A stretch of 64,000 nt of DNA from Octopus sinensis (Eukaryota). Numbering within the stretch: position 1 is the stretch's first letter; each line of letters starts with the position of its first letter. Shown piece by piece: positions 8,908 through 58,487 of this stretch. A model generated the notes under the pieces. The model was not told the DNA's origin. It did not search any database and saw only the letters and a list, made by a program, of their open reading frames with translations. Location: contig NC_043000.1 in assembly GCF_006345805.1 (NCBI RefSeq), positions 93,558,001 to 93,622,000 on the forward strand, written 5' to 3'. The position numbers and the translations under genes were made by a program.

Positions 8908-9088
8908 TATTAGGTGGCTGTCTGCAGTTTAAAAACTCAAAAGGCACAAGTTCAAACGTCACTAAAGTGACTAAGGGGGCAAAACAGCACCAATATTGCT
9001 AGAAATAAGAGTCAAAACAACTCTTAGCCGTGAGGAAGAACATACGTATTGACTGACAAAGGAGACCAGCCTCCCAACGGCAAGCAAG

Positions 9089-9142
9089 AAGTGTCAAATC
9101 ATAGATGATTTTGGATTTAGTCAATCCTCATCAGTGACACTT
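9089..9142 (-). ncRNA. Type I hammerhead ribozyme relic (G12>A)
   Basis: Minus strand: AAGTGTCA CTGATGA GGATT-gacta-AATCC AAAA TCATCTATGA TT TGACACTT. Stem I is 8 bp, stem II 5 bp, stem III 4-5 bp. Confidence 0.75.
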
Positions 9143-9411
9143 ACTCCATTGCCTAGTGTTGAATGGAACACGCCTTGTCATATATATATATATATATATA
9201 TGTATATATTTATATACATATAGTGAGTGTGTGTATGTATGAGAGTGACAGAGAGAGGTATACACAACAGACTTATGAGGGAATGTATGAATGCATACAT
9301 GCTTTTATTTTTGTACTTGTGCATTTATGAATTTAAATATATACATGCATATATGTCTGCACTATATATGTATGTGTCAAATTGTTTTCTTATACACATG
9401 CACATACACAG

Positions 9412-9469
<58 letters not shown>

Positions 9470-9512
9470 CAGCTGATAAAATAAACACATACAGTCACAC
9501 ACACATACGTAC

Positions 9513-9566
<54 letters not shown>

Positions 9567-10104
9567 AACATCACAAGCATCTCCTTCATGTCTGAAAGTT
9601 ATTTCTGTTATGAAAACAATTTGCTCTAGATTTCATTGCTTTATGAGTTTTTCAGTATTTTCTTTTTTTTTCCCCTTTTCTCTTATTTTTCTATTTATTT
9701 TAAAATATTTTTAACTCCCCCGATCCACCCCGTTGTTTTGTTAACTTTGGAACATTGTAAACAAATTTAGCATATATTCTGTCACTGAGATTTTGTAAAC
9801 ATATATACGACTACACACACACGCACATACATACACTTACGCATACACACACATTACTAGTTATTTTGGATATTGTACTGTAGCCATACTGGAGCACCAC
9901 TTTGAAGGTTTTCATGCAATGCAATCATTTATGCTACTATACATAATTTTGAGTCTACAACTCAGTACTTTCTGTTTGTCAAGATACTAAGTTGACAAAT
10001 ATACATACATACATAAATACATACATACATACATACATGTATTTATATGTATGTATAAATATGTATATATATGATTGTGTGCAAATGGCTCTGTGCATAT
10101 ATAC

Positions 10105-10142
<38 letters not shown>

Positions 10143-10254
10143 TTATACTGGTGTATGTATGAATGTATATACGTGTGTGCGTGTGTGTATCTATATGTAC
10201 TTGTAAACAAGCATTCCTATCACATTGGAGGTATCCGTCATTACTTGTCTTTTG

Positions 10255-10447
10255 TGAAGTGCCTAGAGGATGTAGTGCTGCTCTGGGTCAAGACAGTGGT
10301 TGCTGGAAGACCTTATGTCTAGCAACAGAACTCTGCACCATGCCAAAGAAGCAGAAGATCCCAGTCATGGCTGTCAGACAATTCCTGTGGCCACATCACC
10401 CCTAATATCTGGCCACCTAACTCCCCAGACAGTAACCCCTTTGATCA
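10255..10447 (+). mobile_element. Fragment of the same DD37D transposase family as 15628-16508
   Basis: KCLEDVVLLWVKTVVAGRPYV*QQNSAPC...IWPPNSPDSNPFD. Collinear with about 16017-16207. Confidence 0.85.
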
Positions 10448-11389
10448 TGCAGAAATAATGTCTCACATGGAAACAGGTGATGGTTGGCAACAGGGAAAGC
10501 ATCTGGCTGTACAAAATCTTCTGCAAATTCCATGTGTCCCAAGAATGCATGGAAAACCAAACATTAAAAATTATAACAATGATGGTGATTGATGATGATG
10601 ATGATGATGATGAGATGCACACACACACACATTAGTTTGTTGATACTTCTTGCAGTATCTGTTTTTTTTTTTTTCGAAATGTCCTAAATATAAATAAACG
10701 AAAGCGATCAAGTTTTATGTCTATTATTCCTAAGTACAATTAATCCTCTTAATTAATGTCTAATGGAAACAGTCTGCTTCAGATATTTCTGTAAATTTTA
10801 GAATTATTTAAGAATTATTGTTGCGTTTGGTGAAATATGTATGTTTTTAATTTATTTCTTACTCAAGCCGGTGTTCAGAACTGAACTCTGCAAATGGTTC
10901 TGACTTTTGGTCGTTGGGCTAAAAACAACAACAGTCCCCATAACTGCCAAGGCTGGGCTTTGACTTTCACCCTGTCCTTGGGTCAATGAAATAAAGACCC
11001 AGCCTGGTGCTTGGGGGGTCAATTTAATCAGCAAACCTCTGCCCACCACCATCAAATTTGTTCCTTGTACCTATGTGAGAGAAACAATTATTATTTTCAT
11101 TATCAATCATTATCATTTTCACCTTTATTATTAACAGAATTCACATTTCAATAACAATGTTCATCATCACTGTCGGCAACAGCAGCAGCTGCGTTGCTGC
11201 TTTCATATTCACGTTCATTTCCATCGTTGTCCTCGCCACCATCTTCATCCTCAAAGTACTCCTCTTCCACCTCTGTTCCTCTCCATCATCAAAAAAACAA
11301 TAGCTATTACAATTAACATCACCGTCGCCGCCGCCACAACCACCTCCGTCCCCACCATCAGCGCAACAACAACAACAACTGCATGCACC

Positions 11390-11403
11390 GTCACCATCGC
11401 CAT

Positions 11404-11434
<31 letters not shown>

Positions 11435-11541
11435 AGCAACAGCAACAGCGGTTGCATCAGCTGCAGTACAGGCATTGGCTAATGGTATTGCGAACAGATA
11501 TTACGTCTTTTGTCGCTCTCATCCACCACCATCACCATCAC

Positions 11542-11572
<31 letters not shown>

Positions 11573-11590
11573 GTCATCAGTAACAACAGC

Positions 11591-11620
<30 letters not shown>
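11390..11620. repeat. (CAT)n/(CAG)n/(CAA)n trinucleotide tracts
   Basis: Directly visible. No splice or domain support for coding. Confidence 0.9.
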
Positions 11621-11621
<1 letters not shown>

Positions 11622-12322
11622 TTTGCTAGAACTGATTGTGAGAACAACTGAAACAATCACGGTGTATTGATTGATGTCTCTCCGAACACGCATCACTCCT
11701 CCCTTTCCGATTATTGCTTTGTTATCTCCAGCCTCCTCCTTTATCTATTGTTTGTGCTCGTGTGTGTGCCTTTTAATGCATTTGTATATGCGTACATACA
11801 CACAAACACATACATACATACATGCATATATATATATATAATATATATATTATATATATATATTATATATATATATCTATGTGCATATGCATGCATGCAT
11901 GTTTTTGCATGCATGTGTTCTTGAATGATAAGTTTTGTGTCACAAATGCCACTCACTCCTTACAGGCATATTGCCTGGCGCGGGTCAGATTTGATAAGAG
12001 ACTGGTTTATAATTAGCAATTCAGTCTATAAATAACTTATATATATATATATATAGACAGATATAGATAAAATGTATACAAGGACAAATTATAAATTATA
12101 TATGTTTCATACAAATCATTTCAGGCACTTATCTAGAACAGGGAAATAACAAACAAAAAACAAAAGGAACTTTTATCAGAACTAGAAGTACATGCTTATT
12201 GAATTCTGGTGTACGTTTCCAAATTTTCAGGCATAAAAGTCACCGTAATATATTGTATAAACATATAGCATTGAAACAGCATAACTATTTTTCTGAACCC
12301 TGTTGCATTTCACATAGGTTTT

Positions 12323-12555
12323 AAAAAAAATTTTTTTTACTACCCACAAGGGGTTAAACACTGGGAGGACAAACAAGGACAGACAAACAGATTAAATCGA
12401 CCCCAGTGCGTAACTGGTACTTATTTTATCGATCCCGAAAGGATGAAAGGTAAAGTCGACCTCGGTGGAATTTGAACTCAGAACGTACTGGCAGACGAAA
12501 TATGGCTACGCATTTCGCCTGGCGTGCTAACGTTTCTGCCAGCTCGCTGCCTTCG
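12323..12555 (-). mobile_element. SINE family A with 15-bp TSD
   Basis: TTTCACATAGGTTTT at 12308-12322 and 12556-12570 flanks a near-full copy. Confidence 0.9.
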
Positions 12556-12810
12556 TTTCACATAGGTTTTTATGTCCTCCAAAGTTGTCAGTGTATAGAA
12601 AGCAGTCAATCAACCTTTTTGTTTGTTGGCTGTAAATTTCAGACCTGAAAAATTTGAATATTATTGTAAAACTGAAAGATTCTGTTATTTTAACAGTTAA
12701 ATTTATAATTCATATTATTTATATCACTTACAATCATTTTTATGGTAAACATTGAATTTCATGTCATATTTAACTTTATTATTATGCATTATAGGACAGC
12801 TTTTTCTTAA

Positions 12811-13033
12811 CCCTTTAGCATTTAGACTGGCTATATCCGGCCAAAAGTATTCTGCCTGTTTTATGTTCAAACTGTCCAGGTCTGGTCTCTCACACCAACC
12901 CTACAATATTGTTTGAAAAATTAACAGCTACCTCATCAAAATCTCATAGCTACAAGATAATGCATGATTAGTTCAAAACAATATGTAGATGAAAAGGCAT
13001 TAATTTTGGCAGAATAATGCGAACACTAAAGGG
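12811..13033. mobile_element. piggyBac-type MITE (TTAA TSD)
   Basis: TTAA|CCCTTTAGCATTT...GAACACTAAAGGG|TTAA. An inverted relative lies at 61895-62090. Confidence 0.85.
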
Positions 13034-13339
13034 TTAATTTGAGTAAGTAACTATATTATCTGTAATTCTCATTGGGTGTTTGGAAACAATTATCTGAATG
13101 TTTCTAACTTGTTTCAGTCATTGGATTGTGACCATGCTGGGGCACTGCCTTGAAGGGTTTTAGTGAAACAAATCAATCTAAGTGCTTGTTTTTAAGTGTA
13201 GCCCATATTCTACCGGTCTCTTTTGCAAAACTGCTAAGTTATGGGAACACAAACAAGCCAACACCAGTTGGCAAGCAATGATGTGGGACAAAAACTAGCA
13301 CACTCTTATATGCACTTCCTCACATATATAAACACACAT

Positions 13340-13389
<50 letters not shown>

Positions 13390-13503
13390 TTATATATACT
13401 CACATACATACATATATTTATACAAGATATTTCCACAGTTTCCATCTACCAGATTCACTCACAAGACATTGGCTGGCTCAAGACTATGCCTCACAGTGGT
13501 AGT

Positions 13504-13800
13504 GGAGGCACATGGCCTAGTGGCTAGAGCAGCGGACTCGCGGTCGAGGGATCGTGGGTTTGAATCTCAGACCAGGCGATGTGTATGTTTATGAGCGAAA
13601 ACACCTAAGCTCCACGCAGCTCCGGCAGAAGGTAATGGCGAACTCCTGCTGACTCCCTTGCCACAACTTTCTCTCACTCTTTCCTCCTGCATCTTGCAGT
13701 TCACCTGCGACAGACGGGTGTCCCGTCCAGGTGGGGAACATATACGCCAAGGAAACCGGGTAACCGGCCATTATGCGCCAGGCATGGCTCAAAAAGGAAC
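13504..13800 (+). mobile_element. SINE family C (tail type 1) nested in a minus-strand SINE B (about 13107-13870)
   Basis: tRNA-like head GGAGGCACATGGCCTAGTGG. CTCACAGT is repeated on both flanks, and SINE B resumes at about 13804. Confidence 0.8.
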
Positions 13801-14786
13801 AAACTCACAGTAGGACAGAACCCAAAACCACATGGTTGCAAAGCAAGCTGCATAACCACACAGCCACACATAAGCCAATGAAGATTATACATTTAGGTGT
13901 TAGGAAGGGCATCCTGGTGTTAGGAAGGGCATCTGGTGTTAGGAAGAGCATCAAGCTGTAGAAACTCTGCCAGATCAAGATTGGAGCCTGGTGCAGCCCT
14001 TTGGTTCGCCAGCCCTCAGTCAAAATCGTCCAACCCATGCTAGCATGGAAAGCGGACGTTAAACGATGATGATGATGATCAGCATATTTGATAGGAAGAA
14101 AGGACTAGTACTCTGTAGTATAACAATTAGTAAGGTGGTTGCTACAGATACAAAGCATCAATCCTGTTGGAAAATATTCTTTTTCATTTTTATTGCAAAT
14201 TTTTTTTTTCCCATCGTTGTAAATAAGTACTTGTGTATATCATCAGGTTCCTAATGATTAAATTATTTTTAATCACTGTGCACTCATTAAGTTTATTTAT
14301 GATCAGGTAGCTTTTTCATTTAGAAGGCATAATTAGGTTGAATCATGTCCGGAAAAGCCTACATAGCTACCTCAGATTACACCAACTCAGTCTTGCATGT
14401 CACAATTAAATTTTTAGGCAGTCATCATTTTTGAGTTCTCTGCCCTGCTATTTTTGAAATAAGTTTTCGTTAACACTTAAGACTTTCTTGCAAATTTTGA
14501 ATATAATTTCACTGGATTAAAAATATTTTTGGTGTTCTTCATTAAGTTAGCCAGCACTTATCTATCTTTCTAGCCATCTCTATATCTGTGTTTTTATTTG
14601 TTACCCCTCTCTCTCTCTTTCTCTGTATATATAGATATATGTGTGTGTGTTACATATTTACATATATAGTGTGTGTGTGTGTTATATATATATATATATT
14701 TATATATATGTATATTACATATTTACATATGTAGTGTATATATATATATATTACATATTTACATATATATATGCGTGGGTGTGTGC

Positions 14787-14829
<43 letters not shown>

Positions 14830-14985
14830 TTACATATTTACATGTATGTATGTTTGTATACATATATGCATGAATGTATATGTATGTATATGCATATGTA
14901 TGTACATGCATTGTTAGATCTGCGCATAAAGATATGGATATGAATACACACTTACATGCATACACATACACATACACACATGCAA

Positions 14986-15032
<47 letters not shown>

Positions 15033-15627
15033 CACACCACACATACAAACGTACACATACATACAAACATACACACACACACGCATATATATATATATAT
15101 ATACGAAATATACATACAAACATACACACATTGCATACACGTTCTGCTTGATTACACACCACTATTTTGCTCACTTTGTCCCAGTCTTGGAACGGTTTCT
15201 CGGTCAACAACTGCTGCCTGTTGAGGTCAGGCCAACACTACCACCTACTGTGATTCTCCCACACGCTTTTGGTTACAGAAAAGAAAACTAAAAACCGAAC
15301 GGTTACTAGGATATGAAGTGAATGTGTTGCATGTGTGTTGCTATGGTTACTGATGCAGAGATTACCAAGCGATAGAATGATTCTCTCTCTTCCTCAGAGT
15401 CTGTCTCTCTTTCTCTCTGCCTGCGTAGTTAATAGATATTGCCTCATCACTTACAGTTGTGCTCAAAAGGTGTGTTGGAGCATGGATACATGGATGTGTT
15501 TGTCTGTCTGTCAATATACGTGTATGTGTGCTTGTATGTACATTTTTTTTATCCATATTTATGTGTGTGTGTTTATTTATCCATACTATACACACACATG
15601 TGTATATATAATATTCATGTATATATA

Positions 15628-16508
15628 CAGGGTGCGATGGGTAAATTGTCACCATTTTATATTTTTAATTTCATGCATGTGCATTCTTTGTTTTTGATTT
15701 TGTTGACTACACAGTATAGTAGGGTCAGTTGGGCACCATCTTTGAGAAGAACAGCACCATGACGCAATACATTCTACCAGAAATTTGGGAACAACATGCT
15801 GTACTGCTTGGCATTTGTACCAGAAGCTCCAACATGAACAGATGGTAAACACATAGAACAATTGTTGGCTTGCCCTGTCCCCAAAACATGTACCAAGAGT
15901 GATAAAAATCAAACATCCAATTAATATCATGGTTTGGAGTGATCAGTAGTGATTGTGACTTCATGCCTCCAGTCATCTTCCCACATGACCTCACACTCAA
16001 CACAGAGGCCTACATCAAGTGCCTAGAGGAGGTAGTGCTGTTCTGGGTCAAGACAGTGGTTGGTGGAAGACCGTATGTCCGGCAACAGGACTCTGCACCA
16101 TGCCAAACAAGCAAAAGAACCCAGTCATGGCTGTCAGACGATTCCTATGACCACATCTTCCTTAATATCAGGCCACCTAACTCCCCAGACAGTAATCCCT
16201 TTGATTATTATGTGTGGGGCAAAGTTGAGTGAGAGACCAACGAAACTCCTTGTAACACCAAAGGTGAATTGAAGGCAAGGATTATGGCAGCATCCACGAA
16301 CTTAAACAAGGAGATCGCCCAGAAGAGTTACAGGAGATTCTGAAGTTGTCTGGAGACCATGGTTGAGGCCAATGGCAATTTTATTGAATCAATTTACTCT
16401 TTAGAATTTCAAGATATATAATTTTGATAAATATATCTGTTAAAATGAGATGTCAGAGTTATATTCATTATTTTGTAATTTAGAAAACAACATATTCACT
16501 GCACCCTG
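15628..16508 (+). mobile_element. Internally deleted Tc1/mariner-superfamily transposon, DD37D (maT) family
   Basis: TA|CAGGGTGC...GCACCCTG|TA termini. The transposase remnant has QQD and SPDxNPxD(YYVW) motifs, with 37 residues between the second and third catalytic D. Confidence 0.9.
15900..16390 (+). pseudogene. Transposase catalytic/C-terminal remnant with in-frame stops
   Basis: ORF 15939-16232 (ISSDCDFMPPVIFP...YIKCLEEVV...QQDSAPC...PPNSPDSNPFDYYVWGKVE*) continues after the TGA as ETNETPCNTKGELKARIMAA...VEANGNFIE. Confidence 0.88.
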
Positions 16509-16750
16509 TATATATAGATATGATACACTTGTATATATATATATATATTTCATCATTTATATATATATCATTATTTATATATATATATTTTATATATACG
16601 TGTATATATATATATATATGTTTTTGAGCAGATGAGCATGTGTGTGTGTGTATGTATTTATATATATTTACACACACACACATACATACACATTTAGGTA
16701 TAATTGATATATACTTACATATGTATGCATATATATATATATATATATAT

Positions 16751-17131
16751 ATTATTTACAGAATTGTAAAACTTGACACCGCTTAACAAAACCATTTACA
16801 TCGAAAGCACATAAAGTTTGTTTACAAAAACAACTATGAACTAATATAGTTCTTAAATTTGACAGAAAGGAGCAGGCTGGTTCACTGGTGTAATTGGTAA
16901 CACACTTAGTCGTGTTAACAGAGGAATGTGGGTTTGAGTCCCATGTGTATAGGAAAGCCTACTTTTTTCTGTCGAGCGCATATATGCCCCATTATTAGAC
17001 TATTTTCCATAGTCATTTGCACGGTGATGACGATAAGCTTTAAGCTTATAAAAAAAAATAACATTATTATTATTTACAGAAGTGTAAAACTTGACACTGC
17101 TTAACAAAACCATTTGCACCAAAAGCATATA
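16751..17131 (+). mobile_element. tRNA-like cassette bounded by ~63-bp direct repeats within TA tracts
   Basis: Direct repeats at 16751-16813 and 17069-17131. tRNA-like core at 16879-16950 with A box TGGTGTAATTGG, B box GGTTTGAGTCC, D stem GTGT/ACAC and T stem GTGGG/CCCAT, then T6. Confidence 0.65.
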
Positions 17132-18069
17132 TAAATATAAATATATATTTCTTTTTAAAAAGCATAGGTGATGGTGCAATGTAAAAAGTACTGGTGCCGG
17201 AGCCATGTAAAAGGCACTGGTGCCTCATAAAAAGTGCTGCTACCATGTGAAAGAATATCCAGTGCCCTCTTTAAAGTGGTTGGCATTAGGAAAGGCATCC
17301 AGCTGTAGAAACCAAGCCAAAACAGACTATGGTATCTAGTGTGGACCCCTGGATTTTCCAGCTCCTGTGAAGCCATCCAAGCATGGAAAACAGACATTAA
17401 ATGTTGATGATGATGATGAGGAGGAGGAGGAAGATGATGATATATGTTGTTATAAATACATTTATACATTATGGCTCAGTTTTCGTTTCCATGTTGTCAG
17501 TTATAGTCCTCCTGGTTGTAACATGCAAAATTAAGACCAAGCACCCCTGGGAACACCATCACTCTGTTCACTTGATTCCTAGAATGCAGAGATCCTCAAA
17601 GTAAATTTTGTATACAGTAAAGGTTTTTAGTAACTAGAAAAGAAGTCAGAACCCTACTGCCGACAGAAAAATGGCCATAGTTGATACAGAGAAAATGAGT
17701 TGGTGGCAAATCTGTACAGTACATCCATTGTTAGCCATGGACACAGAAGAGGTGTAGTGGGTTCATAGGCAGGGTGTGTCTGCTTGTTTGAGTATAGCAG
17801 GTTCTATATATAATTGGTGCTAACAAATGCCTTTTTGTCTCTATCATGTATGCATATATATGAGTACACATATGCATATGAATGCATGAAAATGTATATG
17901 TGTATGCTTATTCATGTGTGTGTGTGTGTACCTGTACCTGTGTGCATGTATATAATATATATATGTATGTATGTTGAGAGAAAAGAGAGAGAGAGAGGTA
18001 GATATATTTATATGTATACATATGTAATATATGTATGTCTGTATATAATAAATAATATATAATATATAT

Positions 18070-18102
<33 letters not shown>

Positions 18103-18295
18103 CATATATACACTTACGCACTCACACTCACACACACATGCATATATGGGTACAGGATATCACTAACGGTGCAAATAACATGAAATACGTATATCTGTAT
18201 ATGCACATGTATATGTGTGTGTATACATGCATATATACATGTGTGTGAATATATATATTTATGTATATATATGCAAGTGTGTGCATATTTTATAT

Positions 18296-18363
<68 letters not shown>

Positions 18364-18767
18364 CATACATACATACATACATACATACATGCACATATGT
18401 ATACACACTCACACACATATGTATATCTATATGTTGCGGATAGTTTGAAAATATTAATTTCACACTCAGCTTATTCCTATCACAAATTATTTTATTATAT
18501 TTCAGCGCATTTTTTATTTATGCGTTTTGGTTTTTAAAATTTCAATTCTACCAATATGTTTTCTGTGATTGTCGCAGCATTCTATTCACCATGCTATGAA
18601 ATTTAATAGAAATTTGAAAAATTATTGATTTCCTGCGGATAGTTTTGTGTATTTGTGGGCTTGTGTTTTCTTTCATGTTTAAAAGAACAGCACAATAAAT
18701 ACATATCTTCGAAGATCTCTCTCTTATCTGTTAATCATGAGTATTTATATATATATATATATATGGT

Positions 18768-19060
18768 GGAGGTGCAATGGCCCAGTGGTTAGGGCAGCCG
18801 ACTCGCGGTCGTAGGATTGCGGTTTCGATTCTCAGACCGGGCGTTGTGAGTGTTTATTGAGCGAAAACACCTAAAGCTCCACGAGGCTCCAGCAGGGGGT
18901 GGTGGCGATCCTTGCTGTACTCTTTCACCACAACTTTCTCTCACTCTTTCTTCTGTTGGCCTGCTCGCTTAGCCAGCGGGGCCAAAACAATGTGAAGCGC
19001 ATTGTGACCAGCCATGTGTAGCAACATCTGATAGCCTGGTCGGTCACTGTGATCATGGTG
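18768..19060 (+). mobile_element. SINE family C, tail type 2
   Basis: Same head as 4905 and 13504. The 3' part AAAACAATGYGAA.GCATTGTGACCAGC.ATGTGTAGCAACATCTGATAGCC is shared with 63251-63504. Confidence 0.85.
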
Positions 19061-21170: not shown

Positions 21171-21237
21171 TCTGATAGTAATAATAACTAATAATAATAA
21201 TAATTATTATTATTATTATTATAATTATAATTATAAA

Positions 21238-21876: not shown

Positions 21877-21908
<32 letters not shown>

Positions 21909-25139: not shown

Positions 25140-25147
<8 letters not shown>

Positions 25148-25206
25148 CTGAAGGGATGCTATAAAGCGAAGTGCTTTATGGATGTGAAACCTTGGGTAAC
25201 CCTATA
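25140..25206 (+). ncRNA. Degenerate hammerhead-like motif between TA tracts
   Basis: CTGAAGG, hairpin CTATAAAGC/GCTTTATGG, GAAAC-CTTGG-GTA, then ACCCTATA pairing imperfectly with the upstream TATATGTT. Confidence 0.45.
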
Positions 25207-26148: not shown

Positions 26149-28072
26149 GTGAAAAATTATTACCTTTGTATGGTATTTATTCCCATGCTGGCCACTTGAT
26201 AATATCAATATTTAAATATTGATATTATCCTTATTATAAAGATATTTTATTAATAAATTTTTCCCTTATGAGGTTTTTCATGCTAACTACTTGATAATTT
26301 CTTATAAAGATTTTATCCTATTTTAAAATTATATAGATAGATAGATAGATAGATATAGGTATGTATGTGTGTATAAATCATCCTTTCAGTTTGTGTCTTC
26401 GATAATGTATGAAATAAATGACTACGTACTTGAAACAAGCAAGGCACTTGCTTGTTTCAAGTGGTTGATAGAAACCCATTGTGTCGCATGTGTGTGTGTG
26501 TATACACACATGCATGTAACTTCCAATAAATGCATTGAGTGCCCTTCTTTCGTTTGTCCACTTACTCATATATATGTTTGTGTGTGTGTGTGTATATGAT
26601 ATGCTTTTCATATGTATACATTTGTGTGTCCTTGTCTTAACAGTGAATAATAATTGTATATAAGTGTTATTCTCATATGAGCAATGTCTCTGAAATCATG
26701 TCCATCCATGAGGATGTATTACTTTGCTTGGGAGCAGCTGCAGTTGGTATCATGAAGGGCATCTTGGTGTAGAAAATATATATATATATATATATATACA
26801 TACACGCACACACATGCACACACACACACATACATATATAGGTTGATTATCTTTTTTATTCTCTCAGGATTTTAGGATCAATTTTGGTTAGATTTTTTTA
26901 ATTGAAATGTGTTAAATTATATAATTATTTTGTTTTCATCTGTCATCATTCCAAAATCATTACGACCCACCACCATAACCACCACTACCACCACCACCAC
27001 CACCACCAACACAACAACAACAACAACAACACTACCACTGCTCCAACCAAAAACATTCTCGAAGTATCATTTTTGTCTCTAGCATAAAATAAGGTTCACT
27101 TTTTTAAATTTGCCCTATAGTCTGTTCCCTTTCTTTCCTTCCTTTATTCAATTTATATTTTTGAAAGCATTCAGACTTGATCTCAACAAAAACAAAAAAA
27201 TAAAAAAAAATAGCATAAACCAGAATTAAAAAAAAAAACAGAAAAAGAAATAACACTTGCCTGCCCCTACCCATATTATAATAAACAACATTACTATACA
27301 GACACATGGCTCAATGCTGCAGCCACTGTTGCTGTTGGTGCATTGCTTTACTGCATCACTTGCTCATTCTGCTATTGCTTATTGCATGGTCAGTGCACAG
27401 TATATGTTGTGGGTATTTCTATATTTTCTATGAATTGCACTTGGCATCACCGATGTATACAGCAATTTGCACTCATTGCTATAGCTACTTGCATTATTTT
27501 TCTCATTCTATCCCACTTCCTCACCTTCATCACTCCTATTGCTACCACCACCATATACATATGCAAACACAAGTATGCACACACACACACACACACACAC
27601 ATATACATGCATATGCACAAACACATACACATACACACTTGTCCTGCTTCTTGTTGAAAACAGCGCATTATTTTTTTCTTCTCTATCTTGCAGTAAAAGA
27701 GAATTTAACCAATAATGCATGTTTAAGCGAAAGAGTAAAGCAAATTTAGTCCTAATATACAGTACATATGTGTGTGTGTGTGTATTTATAATTATATATT
27801 GATAGAGAGACAGCGTGAAAAAACTATTAAGATGGGATAGGCTCACAATCAAGATTATTTATTCGATGCTTAAAGAGGTGAATAGTGTTCTTCAGCATAT
27901 GTTTAGAAGAAAAAGAGAGAAGGAAAATACACATGCACTCACGCACGTGCACACACACACACACACAATATATATATATATATATATTATAATATATATA
28001 TATATATATATATACTTATATGTAAATACTAATATATATATCTGGAAATGTAATATGTGACAATTATTCGGT

Positions 28073-28144
28073 AGCCAAGATAAAACTCCGAGTTTCGGAT
28101 GCCGAAGTGGAAATCCACGCCACCATCTCTTCAGTTATCTGGCC
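28073..28144 (-). ncRNA. Type I hammerhead ribozyme (conserved core nucleotides intact)
   Basis: Minus strand: GGCCAGATAA CTGAAGA GATG..GTGGatttCCAC..CATC-C GAAA CTCGGAG TT TTATCT-T-GGCT. Stem I is ~10 bp, stem III is short and near-palindromic, and the cleavage triplet is GUU. Confidence 0.75.
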
Positions 28145-28198
28145 ATCGGAAAAACACTATGAAAAATGACCGTCATATATAAAATATTTTTGTAATGC

Positions 28199-28273
28199 TT
28201 TAACTGAGGACGGTTTACATAACGGATGCATTCTGTGTTATATATCATACAAATCTGAAACATACGTATTAAA
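28199..28273 (+). ncRNA. Minimal type I hammerhead ribozyme (imperfect stem II)
   Basis: TTTAA CTGAGGA C GGTTT...AAATCT GAAAC atac GTA TTAAA. Stem I is 5 bp, stem III is 2 bp, and the cleavage triplet is GUA. Confidence 0.6.
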
Positions 28274-28857
28274 TGACTTTAAAATCTCAGTTTTGCTTGA
28301 CTTTATTATTACTACTGATATGACTCAATGTCAATACAATCTAGACAGTCTTGATGCCACTTGCACAGATACTCAGATATTAACATCCATTATCAAGCGG
28401 GAGTGGGGGAACAAACGTATATAAATGGCAGGCTTCTTTCAGTTTCCAACTACCAAATCCACTCATAAGGCTGTGGTCGGTCCAAGGCTATATCAGAAGA
28501 CACTTGTCCAAAACACTTGCTACTTACCTCATAGCCACTCCTGCGCCTAACAGGTTTTTCAGTGAGTTTGGTCGCTTGTTTGAGTATTTTAGCTCTTATT
28601 TCTAGCAAGCTGGTACTTCATGTATCCTCTATTTTAATTATTTATTAATTAGAAAATTTTATTGGTTAGCCAATTAATGGCATTATTGCTTGCTGGCCAC
28701 TAATATTATTGTTGTTATTATTATTGTTTATTATTTATATATTTACTGCTAATGATAATAATATATTATTGAATATTCATTCAAATATTTACTCATATAT
28801 ATCTATGTATGTCTATACGTATGTATAGATAGGTAGGTAGATAGATAGATAGATCTG

Positions 28858-48329: not shown

Positions 48330-48538
48330 ATATACATATATGAATATAGAGATATATATGTATATATGTGTGTATATATATATATATATATACATGTGTG
48401 TGTGTATATATATATATGTACATATATATATATATTCATATATATATAATATATATTCATATATATTATATATATATATATAATATATATATATTTATAT
48501 ATTCATATATATATATATTCATATATATATATATATTC

Positions 48539-48573
<35 letters not shown>

Positions 48574-48588
48574 TATATATATATATAT

Positions 48589-48677
<89 letters not shown>

Positions 48678-49028
48678 CTGTGGGGATTTTCTTTCTTTTT
48701 TTTGTGGCATGTTCCATAGTGAATTTAAGAGTGAGGGTGATTATTTTTAGAATGTTTTTGTTTTGTTTATGCGGCTTGGACTTGGCAGTCTGGTTAGAGG
48801 AAATCCACTACCCCACCCCATAAATAAAATTAAACTGAAACAAAAGAATCTTAATTAAATATAAGATATCTCAATTTTTTTCATCAATTAGTTATTTTGT
48901 GAAGGAAGCTCTCCCTCTTATCCTTCGTACCTCTCTTTTTCCCCTCTTGTTTCTTTAATGGCATATCCATATATAGGTGTGTGCAATATATTATATATTA
49001 AATAAATATATCAATATTACATATATAT

Positions 49029-49083
<55 letters not shown>

Positions 49084-49391
49084 TTTTATATATATAGTAT
49101 ATATATATATATAATATATATATATATATATTATATATATAGTATATATATATATATACATATATGAATATAGAGATATATATGTATATATGTGTGTATA
49201 TATATATATAATATATATATATATACATGTGTGTGTGTATATATATATATAATATATATATATATATTTCTTCTATATATATATATCATATATATATATA
49301 TATATATATATTCATATATATTATATATATATATATTATATATATATATATCTATATATATATATATATTCATATATATATATATATATTC

Positions 49392-49426
<35 letters not shown>

Positions 49427-49573
49427 TATATATATATATTACACATATATATATATATATCTACACACAATATATATATATATTACACATATATATATAT
49501 ATATAGATATATATATATATATACACACATATATATATATACACACATATATATATATATTTATATACACACA

Positions 49574-49652
<79 letters not shown>

Positions 49653-50110
49653 CTGTGGGGATTTTCTTTCTTTTTTTTGTGGCATGTTCCATAGTGAATT
49701 TAAGAGTGAGGGTGATTATTTTTAGAATGTTTTTGTTTTGTTTATGCGGCTTGGACTTGGCAGTCTGGTTAGAGGAAATCCACTACCCCACCCCATAAAT
49801 AAAATTAAACTGAAACAAAAGAATCTTAATTAAATATAAGATATCTCAATTTTTTTCATCAATTAGTTATTTTGTGAAGGAAGCTCTCCCTCTTATCCTT
49901 CGTACCTCTCTTTTTCCCCTTCTTGTTTCTTTAATGGCATATCCATATATAGGTGTGTGCAATATATTATATATTAAATAAATATATCAATATTACATAT
50001 ATATTATATATATATATATATTATATATATATAATATATATATATGTATTTTTATATATATAGTATTATATATATATAATATATATATATATTATATATA
50101 TAGTATTATA
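48330..50110. repeat. Near-identical ~1-kb tandem duplication (TA tract plus ~345-bp unique segment)
   Basis: 48678-49022 and 49651-49996 appear identical apart from one T indel. Confidence 0.92.
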
Positions 50111-50137
50111 TATATATATTATATATATATATATATA

Positions 50138-50178
<41 letters not shown>

Positions 50179-51081
50179 ATATATATTTCTTATTTAGTCT
50201 TGGAAAAAAGTATTGGTATGCATATATGTTGCTTCTTTAATTGGTACTCATCACCACATCATAGCATTGCCATACTTTGACTTCAGGCAGGCTTAGAGAC
50301 AGGTAAAAAGAAAAGTGATTTCAAACACACACCTATTTTGATATCATGCTCGTCCATTGGAGTGACAAGGATCAACTACCCATTATAGGATGTAAGGACA
50401 CACACACACACACACATGCATACATACACATACATACTAACCAAAATACTCTGGGATTTTTCAAGTATCTTATAGTAATGGATCTCAAATTACCAAATAT
50501 TTGATACCTTACTTTCTCTTCCCTTCAAAAAGCTAATAGTGTGAAGTTTTTTAGCTCCACTCACACACCACCAATTTTATTAAACAGAACACACAATGGA
50601 GTTTTGATTCTTTACAATTCTTTCTTTGTCAAGATGCTGGACAAATTTAAATGTTTAAAACCATTTTTATTTTTATTCAACATGTTAACATGTGTATCCC
50701 CATTTCTACCTTAACAACCCTTCTCATTTCATTGTTTTTTTGCTGTTGTTTTCAGTTCTACCGCATGCTTTCTCCATGACCTGCAATCTGTCACGCCATG
50801 ATTAATTATTTTAACAAAATTTTAAATTAAAATTATTAAACCAAAAGTACAGATAATAGAAAATATGTTCACTTCATTACTTGATTAATGTGGTTGTTAA
50901 AATAGCTAGCATTTTGTAGGTTGTGTGTCATGTTCTATAGATATTATCCTCTTATCATTTGGTGCAGCAACGTGGGCGTCTATAAGAGCAATCAGACTTT
51001 TATTTATGCATTTCTGTTGTTTTTGTACACGTGTATGACTCTGTGTGTGTATGTATGTATGTATCTATGTATGTATGTTTG

Positions 51082-51112
<31 letters not shown>

Positions 51113-51360
51113 GGAGGCGCGTGGCTTAGTGGTTAGGGTGTCAGCATCATGATTGTAAGATTGTGGTTTCGATTCCTGGACCGGGCAACGTGTTGTGTCC
51201 TTGAGTAAAACACTTCATTTCACGTTGCTCCAGTCTACTCAGCTGGCAAAAATGAGTAACGCTGCAATGGACTGGCGTCCCATCCAACTTGAGAGCACAT
51301 ACACCATGGAAATCAGGAAACCGGACCCATGAGTGTGGCTAGGCTTTAAAAGGGTGCATT
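51113..51360 (+). mobile_element. tRNA-derived SINE with Meta-like domain
   Basis: GGAGGCGCGTGGCTTAGTGG head, GTGTTGTGTCCTTGAGTAAAACACTT, and TGCAATGGACTGGCGTCCCATCCA tail shared with SINE C tail type 1. Confidence 0.75.
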
Positions 51361-51893
51361 CATTTTTATTTATATATACGTATATGTGTGTTTGTACTCT
51401 TGTATTGACATCCTGTCATGGTTGTAAACAAGTGTCACCTTCATTACAAATGATGTTGTTTATTATTTCTAGTCTTCCATAAAACATCTTTGACTATGGA
51501 GCAATATTACCATGCTAATATGGGTTGGATGGTTTGACAGAATCCAGTGAATTGGAGAATCCCATCGTAGTCCAATGTCTTAGTTTTGACATGGTGTCTA
51601 CAGCTGGACAACCTTCATAACACCAACCCTTTCATAGGGTGTACTGGGTGCTTTTTCTCTTGGCACCAGCCCTTGTTGGGTGGCCTGACAATTTGCAAGA
51701 CAAAAATGCTTAAGATAGCTCAAAGATGGAGAGGAGAATGTGAGTGCTGATTTTAAGTGAGGTGATGAGTGGAGAAACGGTATGGATGAGAAGAGGTAGT
51801 TGTGAGTGGTTGTAGTAGTAGAGAAAGAAACAGTGTAGATGTATTAAATGTTTTTTTTTAATCAGTGTATATTTGCCAAAGTTTGTCTCACAG

Positions 51894-52001
51894 GACTATT
51901 TTTGCTATTACAGAATTTGGAAGTGGTGATTTGAATATCAACCACTCTATATTGTGTTCGAGTGGAACCCTAGAACCTCCAAAATTTTGACAACAACGGA
52001 A
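51894..52001 (+). other. Mef2: 5'-UTR part of the Mef2 first coding exon (acceptor candidates ending at 51893 or 51913)
   Basis: TTTGTCTCACAG|G and TTTTTGCTATTACAG|A. No ATG between these acceptors and the start codon. Confidence 0.55.
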
Positions 52002-52055
52002 ATGGGAAGAAAAAAGATCCAAATTTCCAGGATCGGCGATGAAAGGAATCGGCAG
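52002..52055 (+). CDS. Mef2: Myocyte enhancer factor 2, first coding exon (N-terminus of the MADS box); remainder of the gene lies beyond the window
   Basis: Translates to MGRKKIQISRIGDERNRQ (Drosophila Mef2 MGRKKIQISRITDERNRQ, human MEF2A/C MGRKKIQITRIMDERNRQ). Followed by CAG|GTAAGT at the conserved phase-0 intron after Q18. Confidence 0.97.
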
Positions 52056-52314
52056 GTAAGTTGATGTTTTTCTTCTTTTTTTTATTTTATATTTTTGTAT
52101 GAAGGGAAATGGAATGTATGTATGTATTTGTGTGTGTGTATATGTGTGTGCTTGTGTAAGAGGGGTAGAGAAAAGTAACAAAAGGTAACAGAAAGAAGTT
52201 AACATCATCATCATCATCATCATCATACAAATCAACAGTACAGTTAGCGGTCCCTTGAAATTCCTGGCTTTGTACTAAAATTTGAAACCATTAATTTAAC
52301 CGAGGTGCCTTAGT

Positions 52315-52682
52315 TCAAATATTGTTGAGGTCAACTTTGCCATTTGTCCTTGTGGGTTTGATAAAATAAAGTACTTACTAAGGCCGTTGGTATTAAATAA
52401 CACCACCAAGCCTTGCTCAAATTTCTAGCTGCGTACCTAAGTTAGAAATAATTAATACTACTGGAGTGTGATAAGGGGGTGAGCTGGCATAATCATTAGC
52501 ATGCCTTGCAAAATGCATAGCACATTTCATCAGTCCTCATGTTCTGAGTTCAAATTCTGCCAGGACTGAGTTTGCATTTCATTATTTCGGCATTGATAAA
52601 ATTGGTACGAGTTGAGCACTGGGGTCAACATAATTTACCCCCTCCTTCAGAATTGGTGGCTTTTTACCAAAATTTGAAACCA
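52315..52682 (+). mobile_element. Two tandem diverged SINE A copies
   Basis: GTTCAAAT...TTTGC..TT..TC..T..GATAAAAT..GTAC motif occurs twice. Confidence 0.7.
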
Positions 52683-53743
52683 ATATCACTGGAGTGTAAA
52701 TGACCTCACTAATGTCTACATAATTATTTTAATTATTTATTTATTCATTTATGACACTTTCTCTCATTTCACACTGTGCAGACACTGTTGTTAAAATTTA
52801 TTTTATTTTAAAGTATTTAAAAAAAAAAGTATTAAATAGAAAAAGAGAACTCTTTTTCTGCTCTGTCCCCCATCTCCTTACTCACACACAAATATACAGA
52901 TATGAAGAAAAAAGAATATAAAAAACCAGAAACAAAACAAAAAAAAATCAAGTGATGCTAATAAAAGAAACTCTAAAAATAATAACAATAAGAAAAACCA
53001 CCCACCTCCAATGCTCTCCCCCACCATCATTACCACTAATAATAAAACAATAAATTAAAATGTAAATAAACCCAGCTAAATGAATGGAATGCACATTAAC
53101 CAAAGTTCTTGTATGTGGAGTTTTGTTGTCATTATTTTCATAGCTTAACAATTAAGTACCCTTTCATAAACTGATGTACTTTTGAGCAAAGTACTGTTCA
53201 TTGTGCACCCTGTTTTCTGTTGGCTGGAAAGCTTCTGACATTTCCAACTTGCTCCAGTGAAAGAATGGGTGAGATGGAACGCAAAAGAGCAATGGAAAAC
53301 AAATGCAATAATGAAATGGGTAAATAAAGTAGATATAATTTTGATATGTTTTAAATAAAAATAAAAAAATTGAAAAATAAAATGAAAAGAAAGAGAACTT
53401 TGGAATAAATTATTTACTAACATGTCCATCCCATTTCTATTGTCATGAACTTACATATGTGTGGTCGCATATACCTGGAGTATAGTATGTGCAAATCAAA
53501 TAAATGAGCATTAAAAATAATAATAACAAACAACAAGAGGACGTGCACATGGAATTTATTAATTTGATGCTCAGTAAAAAGAGAGTTTTTGTTATTTCGA
53601 GCATAGCACTTTATCGGAAAGGGAAAAGGGAAAAGTCAAAAGAAGGTAGAAAAATCGCCAACAGCACACATGAAGTTACTGTGTGTGTGAGTGTGCGTCT
53701 GTCTGTGTGTGTGTTAGTTGTTACTCGATTCATGGCTCAGTTG

Positions 53744-53975
53744 AAGGCGGCGAGCTGGCAGAACCGTTAGCACGCCGAGCAAAATGCATAGCCGTATTTC
53801 ATCTGCCATTACGTTCTGAGTTCAAATTCCGCCATTGTCGACTTTGCCTTTCATCCTTTCGGGGTCGAATAAATTAAGAACCAGTTATGCACTGGGGTCG
53901 ATGTAATCGACTTAATCCGTTCGTCTGTCCTTGTTTGTCCCCTCTATGTTTAGCCCCTTGTGGGTAATAAAGAAA
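53744..53975 (+). mobile_element. Full-length young SINE A with 17-bp TSD
   Basis: GATTCATGGCTCAGTTG (53727-53743) and GATTCACGGCTCAGTTG (53978-53994). Confidence 0.92.
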
Positions 53976-54877
53976 CGGATTCACGGCTCAGTTGCTAAAG
54001 TATATGACCACCAACCGAAAGGCTGTTGGCTCCAGATCACCTATTATTACTGCTAATCATGACATTTAACTCACAAGATTCTCTATTCACCCAGATGTAA
54101 AGAGATAGATATATTTTTGGAGTAAAGATTCACTGAATGAATAAATTCAACATTTTGTTCCATAATTCTCTTCTGTAATCTTATATCTTAAATGACCATC
54201 TCTGCTGCCATCCACCTCCATATTAACGCTTTTGTGACTATATTTCTAATGAGATGACTGTCTGTGCATTTCAATTAATTATTGCTCACAGTAATCAAGA
54301 TTTTGAAGAGGATTTGTAAAATATCAGTAACTATATATCATCGTCATTATCATCATCGTATTCAATGTTTTAATGTCCACATTGCATGAATCAGACTGAT
54401 TTCATTGAGGCAAATTTTCTGTCTGGATGTCCTTCCTGTCACTAACCCTCACCTGTTTTTCGAGCAAGCTATTACTCTCCCATGGCTGGACATGTTTTCA
54501 TGGTAGATTGCAAATGAAGGACACTAACTATATTTGTATTAGGGTGACGCTCATTGGCAACTATTGTGCAGTGTAAGACGAAGAGACACATATACACACA
54601 TTTATGAACACACACACATATAAATATATATCAATTTTAATAAATTAAAGGTTGACAGCAAAAGTTAATAAATACATAGGCTACCAAAAATATATAGAGA
54701 AATTCTTCAGTTTAATATTAAAATGCTTCCATATATGATTTGACTTGAAAACATAGCTTACACACATACACACTTACATAGATACACACACACACATATA
54801 TCATCGTCATCATCGTTGTTTAATGTCCACTTGTTGAGTGGTAGTGGGGGACAAAGACCTACACATACACACACACC

Positions 54878-55428
54878 TGATCCACTCACAAAGCTTTGGT
54901 TGATGAAAAGCTATAATAAAAGACACTTGTGCAAGGTACCACACAGTGGGACTGAACCTGGAACCATGTGGTTGGGGAAGCAATGTTCTTACCACACAGC
55001 TACATACATGCCTATACACACACACACTCACACACACATACACACACAATCACACACACACAAATAGGGCTTCTTTCAGTTTCCCTCTACCAAATCTATT
55101 CATAAGGTTCTGGTCAACCTGAGGCAAGAGTAGAAGACACTTACTGGAGGTGCCACATAGTGGAACTGAACCCAAAACCATGTGGTTCGGAAGCAAGCTT
55201 CTTACCACAGAGCCACACCCATGCACACACACACACACACAAACACACAAACACACACAAACACACACACACACAAAGGGCTTCTTTCAGTTTCTGTCTA
55301 TCAAATCCACTCACAAAGCTTTGGTTGACCTGATGCTATAGAAGAAGACACTTTCCCAAGGTGCCAAGCAGTGAGACTGAACTCGGAACCATGTGGTTGG
55401 GAAGCAAACTTCCTACCATATAGCCACA
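54878..55428 (-). mobile_element. Three head-to-tail SINE B 5' halves separated by (CA)n
   Basis: AGACACTT...GACTGAAC..AACCATGTGGTT.GGAAGCAA..TTC.TACCAC occurs three times. Confidence 0.85.
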
Positions 55429-55910
55429 ATAAGTGATCCATTAGTCACAACTGGTATACATTTTGTCTGTGCAATTCTGGCCGACCCTGGGTTAATTAAT
55501 TACTGACACTCTAATGTCTAAAAACAAAACCCATAAAAATATCTATGATACATTGACCAAGGTAGTCCTAGATATACATACACGCTAAAAGATTGTATGC
55601 CTTTGATCATAGGTCAGTCAAAACAGGACTGACTTGGACTGCTGGGCTATCTAGTCTGGTGTTCTACTCTTCCAGCCATGCCCCTCACCACCACTATCAT
55701 CACCATCCCCACCACTCAATGACTGACATGATTATGGTAATGATTATTAAGAAGCAGAGAGGATGACCTATCACTGCATGATAGATAAGTACCAAGTGCA
55801 GAAGATTTAATACTCACTAAATAACATGTAAGAGTAAATAATAAATAAAATAAAATGAAAAAACAACAAAGCAGAAGTAGATTATGAGATAGTGAAAACG
55901 TATACATGCA

Positions 55911-55969
<59 letters not shown>

Positions 55970-56304
55970 GCATATATATATCATCGTCATTTATCTATAT
56001 ATATATATATACAAATGCAAATATACATATACGTATATACACATTCTAATATATATGTATACATACACATATTATATATATATATATATATATATTTAGT
56101 TATATATAGATATATACACACACATGTATTACACGTGTGTACATATATATGTGTATATATACATATATATTACATAATTATACATATACATATATTACAT
56201 GTATGTATGTATGTATGTGTGTATGTATGTATGACTATTTTCTTGCAAGGTGAGGTTGTGAGGTTAGTCAGAGATTTTGTCATTGTTGTAGATAAGATGT
56301 GCAA

Positions 56305-56318
56305 AGGTCAAAAGGTCA
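56305..56318 (+). promoter_or_regulatory. Perfect nuclear-receptor DR2 element
   Basis: AGGTCA-AA-AGGTCA, with another AGGTCA half site about 55 bp downstream. Motif evidence only. Confidence 0.35.
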
Positions 56319-56534
56319 CTATGAGAAATAAATGAATTAGTAAAACAGTGTGATTGCAAGCAACATAAATGAAGGTCACATGGCTATGACTACAACAACA
56401 ACAACAACAACAGAGTTTGTTATGCTAATGTGTGTGTGTGTTTGTTAGTAAGTTAGTATGCTAAAGTAGTGGAAATTTGCTCATCATACTTATAAACGAC
56501 ACAACACACACGACTGCACACACACACACACTCA

Positions 56535-56579
<45 letters not shown>

Positions 56580-57121
56580 CTACACCTTTGAAGGAAATTT
56601 TTCTGAAATGACTTTTCAAAATATTTGGGGAAGGAAATTCAAAAGTTTTGGTTATTTCATTTTTTTTTTAATGTCAAAATAGCTATCATTTATGAAGACT
56701 CGCTCATTATTTATATTTTTTGTATAACACCAGGTCAAATTTTATCGAGTCCTCCACAATATCATAGCCATTGGGTTATATATCGGAGGTGTGGTTATTG
56801 GTAAATCAGAGAACTATGCAGGCAGATTTAAACTGTTGTGGCAAATAAAAAGAAACAAAAACAGGCCTTATGATAATTCATTTCATTCTAGATTACTTTG
56901 TCAAACATGAAGAATGTATGGCAAATGAGGATTTGAACTCAGGACATATCTCAAGGCATTTGTGCTGCTGTGTGGTGAGAAGTTTGCTTCTTAATCACAT
57001 GGTTCTGGGTTTAGTCCTGTTGGTTGGTACTTTGGATGTCTTGTACTATGGCCTCAGGTTCACCTAAATCTTCTGAGTGGATTTGGTTGATGGAAACTGA
57101 AAGAAGATCGTTTTATATACT

Positions 57122-57533
57122 CTTACTTGCTTTTACTCTTTTACTTGTTTCAGTCATTTGACTGCGGCCATGCTGGAGCACCGCCTTTAATCGAACAACT
57201 CGACCCCAGGACTTATTCTTTTGTAAGCCCAGTACTTATTCTATCGGTCTCTTTTGCCGAACCGCTAAGTAACGGGGACATAAACACACCAGCATCGGTT
57301 TTCAAGCAATGCTAGGGGGACAAACAGACACACAAACACACACCCGCATATATATATATATACATATATACGATGGGCTTCTTTCAGTTTCCGTCTACCA
57401 AATCCACTCACAAGGCATTGGTCAGCCTAAGGCTATAATAGAAGACACTTGCCCAAGGTGCCACGCAGTGGGACTGAACCCGGAATCATGTGGTTGGTAA
57501 ACAAGCTACTTACCACACAGCCACTCCTACGCC
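57122..57533 (-). mobile_element. Full-length young SINE B, adjacent to an inverted older 5' half (56962-57110)
   Basis: Complete head-CORE-microsatellite-tail structure with CpGs largely retained. Confidence 0.9.
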
Positions 57534-57576
57534 TATATGTATGTATATATATATATTAATTATATATATATATATA

Positions 57577-58207
57577 TCATCATCATCATCATCATCGTTT
57601 AACGTCCGTTCTCCATGCTAGCATGGGTTGGATGGTTCGACCGGGGATCTGCGAAGCCAGAAGGCTGCATCAGGCTCCAGTCTTATCTGGCAATGTTTCT
57701 ACAGCTGGATGCTCTTCCTAACACCAACCACTCCGAGAGTGTAGTGGGTGCTTTTTACGTGCCACCTGCACTGGTGCCAGGCGAGGCTGGCAACGGCCAC
57801 GGTCGGATTGGTGCATTTTACGTGCCACTGGCACGGAAGCCAGTCGAGTCGGCACTGGCATCATCATCATCACCATCGTTTAACGTCTGTTTTCCATGCT
57901 AGCATGGGTTGGATGGTTTGACTGAGGACTGGCGAGCCAGATAGCTGCTCCAGGCTCCAATCTGATCTGGCAGAGTTTCTACAGCTAGATGCCCTTCCTA
58001 ATGTCAACCACTCCGAAAGTGTAATGGGTGCTTCTATGTGCCACCAGTACGAGGGCCAGTCAGGCAGTACTAGCAATGGCCACACTCAAATGGTGTTTTT
58101 TATGTGTCATCTGCACAAGCCAGTCCAGCGGCACTGACAACGACCTCGCTCGAATGTTGTTTTTCACGTGCCACTAGCACAAGTGCCAGTAAGGGAATGC
58201 TGGTAAT
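57577..58207 (-). mobile_element. Two tandem family D repeats
   Basis: (CAT)n-CGTTTAACGTC..TTCCATGCTAGCATGGGTTGG at about 57577 and 57860. Confidence 0.8.
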
Positions 58208-58208
58208 G

Positions 58209-58239
<31 letters not shown>

Positions 58240-58287
58240 CTATATATATATATATATATATATAAAATATTATATATATATATATAT

Positions 58288-58487
58288 GTCCGCACTAGTC
58301 GCCATGATAGGTCGTTAGCCACTACACATATTTTTTTCTCTCCTTGTTTTTTCTGGGTTCCTTTCTGGAGAAGAGCATAGGCTCGAAACGTAAAAGACTT
58401 TTTCTATTCCTGAACGTTATACTAATACATCTGTTTGTTTTGTACACCACCTGTCTTCATCTTTTGTTTCTTTCGTAAACTCTCCCT
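58288..58487 (+). mobile_element. Penelope-like pLTR remnant in a TA tract with a minimal hammerhead (58361-58396)
   Basis: CTTT CTGGAGA A GAGC-atag-GCTC GAAAC GTA AAAG. This is the minimal-hammerhead pattern of Penelope-like elements, with A6 substituted. Confidence 0.65.

Follow-up and report, generated by a model that had tools for sequence, protein, structure and literature searches.

The stretch of DNA analysed here (the window) covers 64,000 nt of Octopus sinensis (NCBI RefSeq assembly GCF_006345805.1, contig NC_043000.1, positions 93,558,001 to 93,622,000, forward strand). It contains short inserts beside (TA)n microsatellites that carry hammerhead ribozyme motifs, designated A (9089-9142, minus strand), B (25140-25206, plus), C1 (28074-28143, minus), C2 (28199-28273, plus) and D (58361-58396, plus). 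These inserts are probably the 3' ends of Penelope-like retroelements. The positions and strands given for all five in an earlier sequence-only reading were checked in the sequence and are correct. The window is AT-rich animal DNA, dense in short interspersed nuclear element (SINE)-like repeats and microsatellites (145 tandem-repeat rows). (TA)6 lies within 200 nt of 36% of the non-simple bases, and a hammerhead-type motif occurs in 3 of the 31 inter-TA segments of 60-480 nt (A, B and D; C sits in a longer segment). As TA tracts are dense throughout, adjacency to TA is by itself weak evidence. The first coding exon of a Mef2-like gene is located at 52002-52055 (plus strand), with 18 codons of the MADS box followed by a GT donor. 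We take the gene to be Mef2 from its peptide; Pfam gave no match on the 33-residue frame, and no second-exon motif was found within the window. A probable splice acceptor near 51913, upstream of the coding exon, implies a non-coding exon somewhere further upstream. The CpG observed/expected ratio is 0.8-1.3 at 1-6000 and mostly 0.1-0.5 further on, and 1-6000 is possibly an unmethylated promoter region upstream of the exon. Only D is demonstrably in a Mef2 intron, downstream of the splice donor; the other four sites are located 24-43 kb upstream of the first coding exon and, given the CpG profile and the acceptor, could lie in a 5' intron.

The core of a type I hammerhead consists of C3 U4 G5 A6 N7 G8 A9, G12 A13 A14 A15 and U16 H17 (PMC3088659). 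C1 has a complete core (fold z -2.30), with a bulged helix I of 9 bp, a long helix II and a 9-nt palindromic helix III; one extra pyrimidine precedes G12 on the 3' side of helix II. The copy that contains it (28032-28174, minus strand) abuts (TA)n with its 3' end at 28032. The core of C2 is also complete, and its helix II is decayed in this copy (28182-28293, plus strand), which belongs to a low-copy family with a few longer relatives that reach about 28385. The two cores noticed in the sequence-only reading at 28073-28273 are indeed present and belong to separate families, arranged head-to-head, a short TA run separating their 5' ends by about 8 nt. This arrangement could stem from a later insertion or from template switching between the two families. 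Insert A (8905-9179, minus strand) is 275 bp long between two (TA)n tracts, with the hammerhead near its 5' end and about 184 nt downstream of it; no second copy was found within the window. Helices I, II and III of hammerhead A are 8, 5 and 5 bp (fold z -2.83). They are supported by pairing only, and helix III is comparatively long. Position 12 (9112, a CpG position) is A instead of G, which breaks the core.

The insert that holds site B measures about 90 bp and is bounded by TA tracts, the downstream one 27 nt from the motif (fold z -1.13). The motif has G in place of A9; helix II forms 12 of 12 pairs with one bulge and helix I forms 6 of 8, with two mismatches. The parse was made by hand in the Hydra-clade register, with the published table of that clade already known, and the likeness to the Hydra-1_Obim row was judged by eye; on its sequence, B is a probable decayed Hydra-type hammerhead. 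Insert D (58288-58486, plus strand) spans 199 bp, has TA tracts on both sides and sits in the intron that follows the first coding exon of Mef2. Its motif is of the minimal type, with helices I and II of 4 bp each and A6 replaced by G at 58368 (fold z +0.33). The published minimal consensus (CUGANGAH, G-C closed helix II, GAAA, two-base palindromic helix III, UH and short helix I) agrees with D in everything except A6; the descriptor score of D is within chance. The D pattern gave no match in viral contigs and 27 loci in metagenomes, none of them similar past about 27 letters. Three of these metagenome loci (L006:602-621, L012:141-160 and L009:632-651) look like minimal-hammerhead repeats of other organisms and resemble the Acropora row of Figure S3 of PMC4209133 with the first core bases changed; they are not used as support. 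A candidate relative of D at 53545-53624 (nhmmer E 0.18) was rejected as weak. As the sequence-only reading held, the inserts are unrelated in sequence: no mutual similarity was found except one 22-nt match. This inverted match (20/22, E 0.004) joins 8996-9017 in insert A and 28587-28608, to the right of a SINE fragment near C2.

The significance of the motifs was assessed with two descriptors. A generic descriptor of type I hammerheads, in which one core position could mismatch, was compared with 60 block-wise dinucleotide shuffles. It gave 3 matches against 3.58 expected, and only A stood out (score reached in 4 of 60 shuffles). A relaxed descriptor tolerated a single additional base to either side of helix II and took helix energies (kcal/mol) as its score; it is post hoc, written with C1 and C2 known, and hence biased toward them. 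Over 128 kb it returned five matches, C1 (-22.7), A (-12.5), D (-0.9), C2 (+1.3) and 24291 (+7.4), four of which are sites named in the earlier reading. Two matches at -10 kcal/mol or lower were found in 0 of 627 shuffles, which places A and C1 beyond chance, and an intact core at -12 or better, as in C1, was likewise found in 0 of 627. C2, with this descriptor, and D are not beyond chance by folding alone. Neither descriptor recovered B or the weak traces that had been named at 2610 and 17024. Rfam, run over the whole window at E <= 10, showed no hammerhead among the 150 of 474 matches listed, which are driven by microsatellites and mostly fall on microRNA models. Separate site scans gave no hammerhead at C or D and, at A, only a weak match to the RAGATH-1 hammerhead (14.7 bits, E 5.9, cut-off 56.3). 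The sequence-only reading had proposed hammerheads at four or more inserts and had named a frequency no higher than in shuffled sequence as the outcome that would tell against it. The count of the generic descriptor is no higher than in the shuffles; A and C1 stand beyond chance with the relaxed one and C2 stands by its family variation, with B and D as plausible decayed copies.

Contigs of four runs (X1, X4, X10 and X7) were aligned to 28014-28428 at 80% likeness. X1 is possibly the source of the assembly; X7 may be an RNA run, and its contigs are not taken as expression evidence. The segment 28057-28420 is present, whole or in part, in 20 of the 24 runs listed. Contigs over the whole 28014-28428 stretch number 7,053 in X1, 3,865 in X4, 2,617 in X10 and 300 in X7, and depth peaks in the C1 copy. 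Summed depth at 28032-28154 is 1.5-2.1 million in X1, X4 and X10 (DNA-type or untyped runs) against 18-44 for the locus contig, a ratio of 42,000-88,000 that, by the aligner's own warning, is not a copy number. C1 is a very large and very abundant family. Among the rows listed, 15 of the 70 hammerhead positions reach 15% or more of other letters in at least one run; they comprise 9 of the 11 unpaired positions, 5 of the 46 paired ones and 1 of the 13 in the core (unpaired against core plus paired, 9/11 versus 6/59, Fisher p 3.5e-6). The pair is kept at 4 of the 5 variable paired positions. The core is kept across the family except that U4 is C in 0-28% of depth. Helices I and II had been folded before the family data; helix III was set by hand. 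Loose ends at 28101 reveal a subfamily with a different yet complementary distal helix II, as judged by eye.

The ends of the C1 family are also informative. Other copies end in (TA)n at 28032, with TA loose ends in 79 contigs of X1 and 60 of X4, and some extend about 20 nt further, giving two 3'-end classes. X1, X4 and X10 each contain joints from the opposite strand to 28154 (few contigs each, sides of 19-54 letters, minimum likeness 80). C1 family sequence runs at least 30 nt further 5', as loose ends at 28154, 28165 and 28177 show. The C1 pattern gave 0 matches in viral contigs. C2 is far less abundant: its summed depth exceeds that of the locus contig by a factor of about 50-140 in X1, X4 and X10 and of 4.5 in X7. 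Its helix II forms 8 of 12 pairs here and 11 of 12 with other letters from related contigs (p 0.005 against random letters), including one double change from A-U to G-C at 28219/28248. The cores of both C1 and C2 are thus kept in other copies; family consensuses that lack the cores, the second outcome named as adverse in the earlier reading, did not occur.

The architecture of several sites resembles that of Hydra-clade Penelope-like elements, as described in PMC8557442 and its supplement. By our count by eye in the supplement, 26 of 27 families of this clade prefer (TA)n, and among the 25 families with tabulated hammerheads, 19 have a 9-nt palindromic helix III and 15 a pyrimidine-pyrimidine apposition at the foot of helix II (PMC8557442). 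As in these elements, the type I hammerhead of C1, C2 and B lies tens of bases before the 3' end, next to (TA)n; the distance to the 3' boundary is 42 nt in C1, 27 nt in B and about 20 nt in C2. Helix III of C1 is identical, letter for letter, to those of Hydra-2_aMil and Penelope-16_HM, and its loop variant is that of Penelope-3_HM (PMC8557442). In helix I and most of the core, C2 agrees with Hydra-1_aMil, and its helix II has at the foot the two unpaired pyrimidines found in 15 of the 25 families (PMC8557442). We had considered the extra pyrimidine before G12 as a new core variant. For C2 this was dropped in view of that same apposition. For C1 it is weakened, as G10.1 can pair with C/U at 28097 with the bulge beside it; its extra pyrimidine on the 3' side only is absent from the 25 families as parsed in PMC8557442, and one of 56 hammerhead rows in PMC4209133 has one extra base before GAAA. 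D resembles minimal hammerheads of the pseudo-long terminal repeat (pLTR) type, those of Poseidon and Neptune elements, in its extra base after A9, G10.1-C11.1, two-base palindromic helix III, short helix I and U-rich 5' flank; it differs in having G at A6, and there is no cephalopod among the 56 rows compared (PMC4209133).

We conclude, with a probability of about 0.75, that the inserts are 5'-truncated 3' ends of several endonuclease-bearing Penelope-like families, at least three and probably five in number. C1, C2 and probably B would follow the Hydra-clade plan, with the hammerhead 20-45 nt from the 3' end, and D and perhaps A the pLTR plan, with 90-180 nt downstream of the hammerhead. The GIY-YIG endonuclease of an autonomous element would nick a (TA)n tract, and the reverse transcriptase (RT) would copy the RNA from near its 3' end by target priming and usually halt early. 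Since the hammerhead lies at the 3' end of the element, the short remnant would hold it. Internal priming at two nearby sites would produce an optional tail; an Anolis element in vitro primes internally at two nearby sites and cleaves AT-rich DNA, and its ribozyme mutants did not block insertion (PMC11167929). Penelope-like elements insert as partial tandem or inverted 5'-truncated copies with an optional tail of 30-40 bp (PMC8557442; PMC11167929). The C1 copies running about 20 nt past 28032 resemble such a tail (PMC8557442; PMC11167929), and the opposite-strand joints at 28154 resemble the inverted partner copies (PMC8557442). The ribozyme would serve the element's own RNA, probably as a dimer, and single genomic copies would then decay. 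Hammerheads with a short palindromic helix III are reported to need a second copy, and a single minimal motif gave no monomer cleavage in vitro; most minimal hammerheads are single scattered motifs, probably from truncated elements (PMC4209133).

Several observations weigh against this conclusion. No RT or GIY-YIG frame was found in the 150 window frames scanned (147 of the 187 passing the filter, plus 3 added). Hydra-clade elements have a single frame with RT (RWK and DKT motifs) and, at the C terminus, a GIY-YIG domain without CCHH, and the octopus element Hydra-1_Obim is a coding element of 2,507 bp whose hammerhead precedes its end by about 30 nt (PMC8557442), whereas the ends found here are non-coding, 90-145 bp long and without an open frame. 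The link to a coding element is therefore one of architecture alone, although the absence of such frames is expected for 3' fragments. Eleven short words from the window gave a single match to the PMC8557442 supplement, a 12-letter word in Hydra-1_Obim with different flanks; the inserts are consequently other families, and none is assigned to a named one. Family-level evidence comes from C1 and C2, and B, D and C2 lie within chance by folding alone. The gain in helix II of C2 is modest when compared with random transitions in its arms (p 0.064). Finally, C1 depth in X1 falls about 240-fold from the helix at 28126-28139 to 28168-28181, a drop equally compatible with truncation and with a short dedicated element. 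Of the view in the sequence-only reading that these are ribozyme-bearing non-autonomous retroelements in (TA)n, what remains is several unrelated Penelope-type families; their non-autonomy is unproven, since no coding partner is seen, and no tandem retrozyme layout was found.

In the main alternative, C1 (possibly along with others) would be a dedicated short element of SINE-like or retrozyme-like kind that is non-autonomous, has a defined 5' end and is transcribed and copied in trans by an enzyme of the Hydra clade. We regard this as unlikely. In full, C1 would be a dedicated non-coding element of about 150 bases, derived from a Hydra-clade 3' end and present at tens of thousands of TA microsatellites in several related species, with a putatively working hammerhead that has a one-sided bulge beside G12. 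The very large depth ratio, the sharp loss of depth 5' of 28154, the tightly conserved pairing and the presence of C1 in runs labelled organisms A, C and E all speak for such an element, and C1 is apparently far more abundant than the Hydra-clade elements described in PMC8557442. Non-autonomous Penelope-like derivatives have also been reported (PMC8557442; bioRxiv 10.64898/2026.07.22.740005). On the other hand, the window copy has no visible promoter module, and because C1 sequence continues at least 30 nt 5' in loose ends, part of the fall in depth reflects divergence from this copy. Animal retrozymes of the non-LTR kind (LTR, long terminal repeat) resemble the inserts in being short, non-coding and Penelope-linked, with a type I hammerhead, and solo monomers exist (PMC7229834; Li, Clavereau and Pollet 2026 preprint). 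They form tandem units, each with a type I hammerhead, and abundant circular and linear monomer RNAs (PMC7229834), whereas the inserts are dispersed, TA-anchored and without tandem hammerhead units. Within the window there is no tandem array, tandem unit or second insert copy, and no head-to-tail joint for C1 or C2 is present among the 15 of 20 joints listed; arrays elsewhere in the genome are possible.

The sequence-only reading had further suggested that the host selects against cleavage of Mef2 pre-mRNA, disabling sense-strand hammerheads and leaving a strand bias among intact cores. The plus-strand sites B, C2 and D are all damaged, C1 as the sole copy left fully intact lies on the minus strand, and C2 departs from its relatives by pair-breaking changes. 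The CpG profile, with no depletion at 1-6 kb and depletion over most of the sequence from 7 kb on, would fit a promoter upstream of all sites, and Xenopus retrozymes are reported to be under-represented in introns. However, hammerhead A, although antisense, is core-dead as well (G12 to A), so that defects affect all 3 copies in sense orientation and 1 of the 2 in antisense (Fisher p = 0.4). Single dimer-type hammerheads gave no cleavage as monomers in vitro (PMC4209133), D is the one site that is demonstrably intronic, and old copies decay anyway. The proposed bias is not upheld by these five sites, and we regard host selection as quite improbable. Least probable of all, and hardly credible for the set as a whole, is that the motifs are chance matches in AT-rich, repeat-dense DNA selected by looking at TA-flanked inserts: the generic count equals that of the shuffles, no Rfam match exceeds its cut-off and TA tracts are dense, but A and C1 exceed 627 shuffles, variation in other copies of C1 and C2 follows structure and three sites match a published clade-specific plan (PMC8557442), so that chance is refuted for C1 and largely for A and C2, is put by our estimate at about one in four each for D and B, and is likely for 2610 and 17024.

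The weak traces do not hold up as hammerheads. At 2610 the core halves are in permuted order, the fold z is +1.7 and there is no descriptor match; a type II reading of this site is unsupported by folding. The surrounding sequence (2505-2960, minus strand) is a TA-flanked insert with a U-rich 3' part and both core halves, permuted and about 28 nt apart. It may be a Naiad-type end with a half core. Naiad elements share the (TA)n target, and the cephalopod Naiads listed in PMC8557442 include two with half cores; the 2610 trace has both halves, with no hammerhead fold, and has no word match in the part of the published Naiad consensus set (PMC8557442 supplement) compared. The trace at 17024 has at least 3 core or closing changes, no helix I and no descriptor match. 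It lies in a 318-bp unit (16750-17131, plus strand) with a 64-bp terminal direct repeat (about 90% identical) and a TA tract on the left. The 17024 hairpin follows a tRNA-like module, now decayed, at 16879-16952 (Rfam tRNA 25.3 bits, E 0.0037, cut-off 29; no ARAGORN prediction), and the unit resembles a retroelement in permuted, partial-tandem arrangement that carries a polymerase III module. A further insert of 157 bp between TA tracts (667-823, minus strand) has an internal 20-nt direct repeat and a first core half at 790 (minus strand), with no GAAA half. Elsewhere, 48675-48962 and 49650-49938 are near-identical 288-bp direct copies, each behind a long TA-rich tract, and represent either a recent local duplication or an assembly artefact. 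Two related fragments (10257-10448 and 16017-16208) have no Pfam match; their translation resembles a piece of a Tc1/mariner transposase.

Penelope-like hammerheads, (TA)n preference, scattered truncated motifs and an octopus example are all already published. For the giant squid, 235 Rfam hammerhead loci are on record (PMC6962438), and for Octopus vulgaris, 31 Penelope-like families with recent activity (PMC13282606). The present findings add undescribed or unnamed families to the known class of (TA)n-targeting, hammerhead-bearing Penelope-like elements. Among the items listed in the literature on hammerheads with Penelope, octopus or cephalopods, these families were not found; repeat libraries lay outside the scope, and absence from print is not claimed. 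Lunse et al. and the 2026 preprint of Li, Clavereau and Pollet may already cover these variants to some extent. Five copies in one window cannot settle the question of selection, which bears on the still unclear role of these ribozymes. At the scale of C1, there seem to be enough intact and broken copies to test selection against hammerheads inside host transcripts. If C1 is a dedicated element, it would rank with the most abundant families of natural ribozymes in an animal while escaping both Rfam and a generic descriptor, and would be numerous enough for a direct measurement of whether introns are purged of intact ribozymes on the sense strand.

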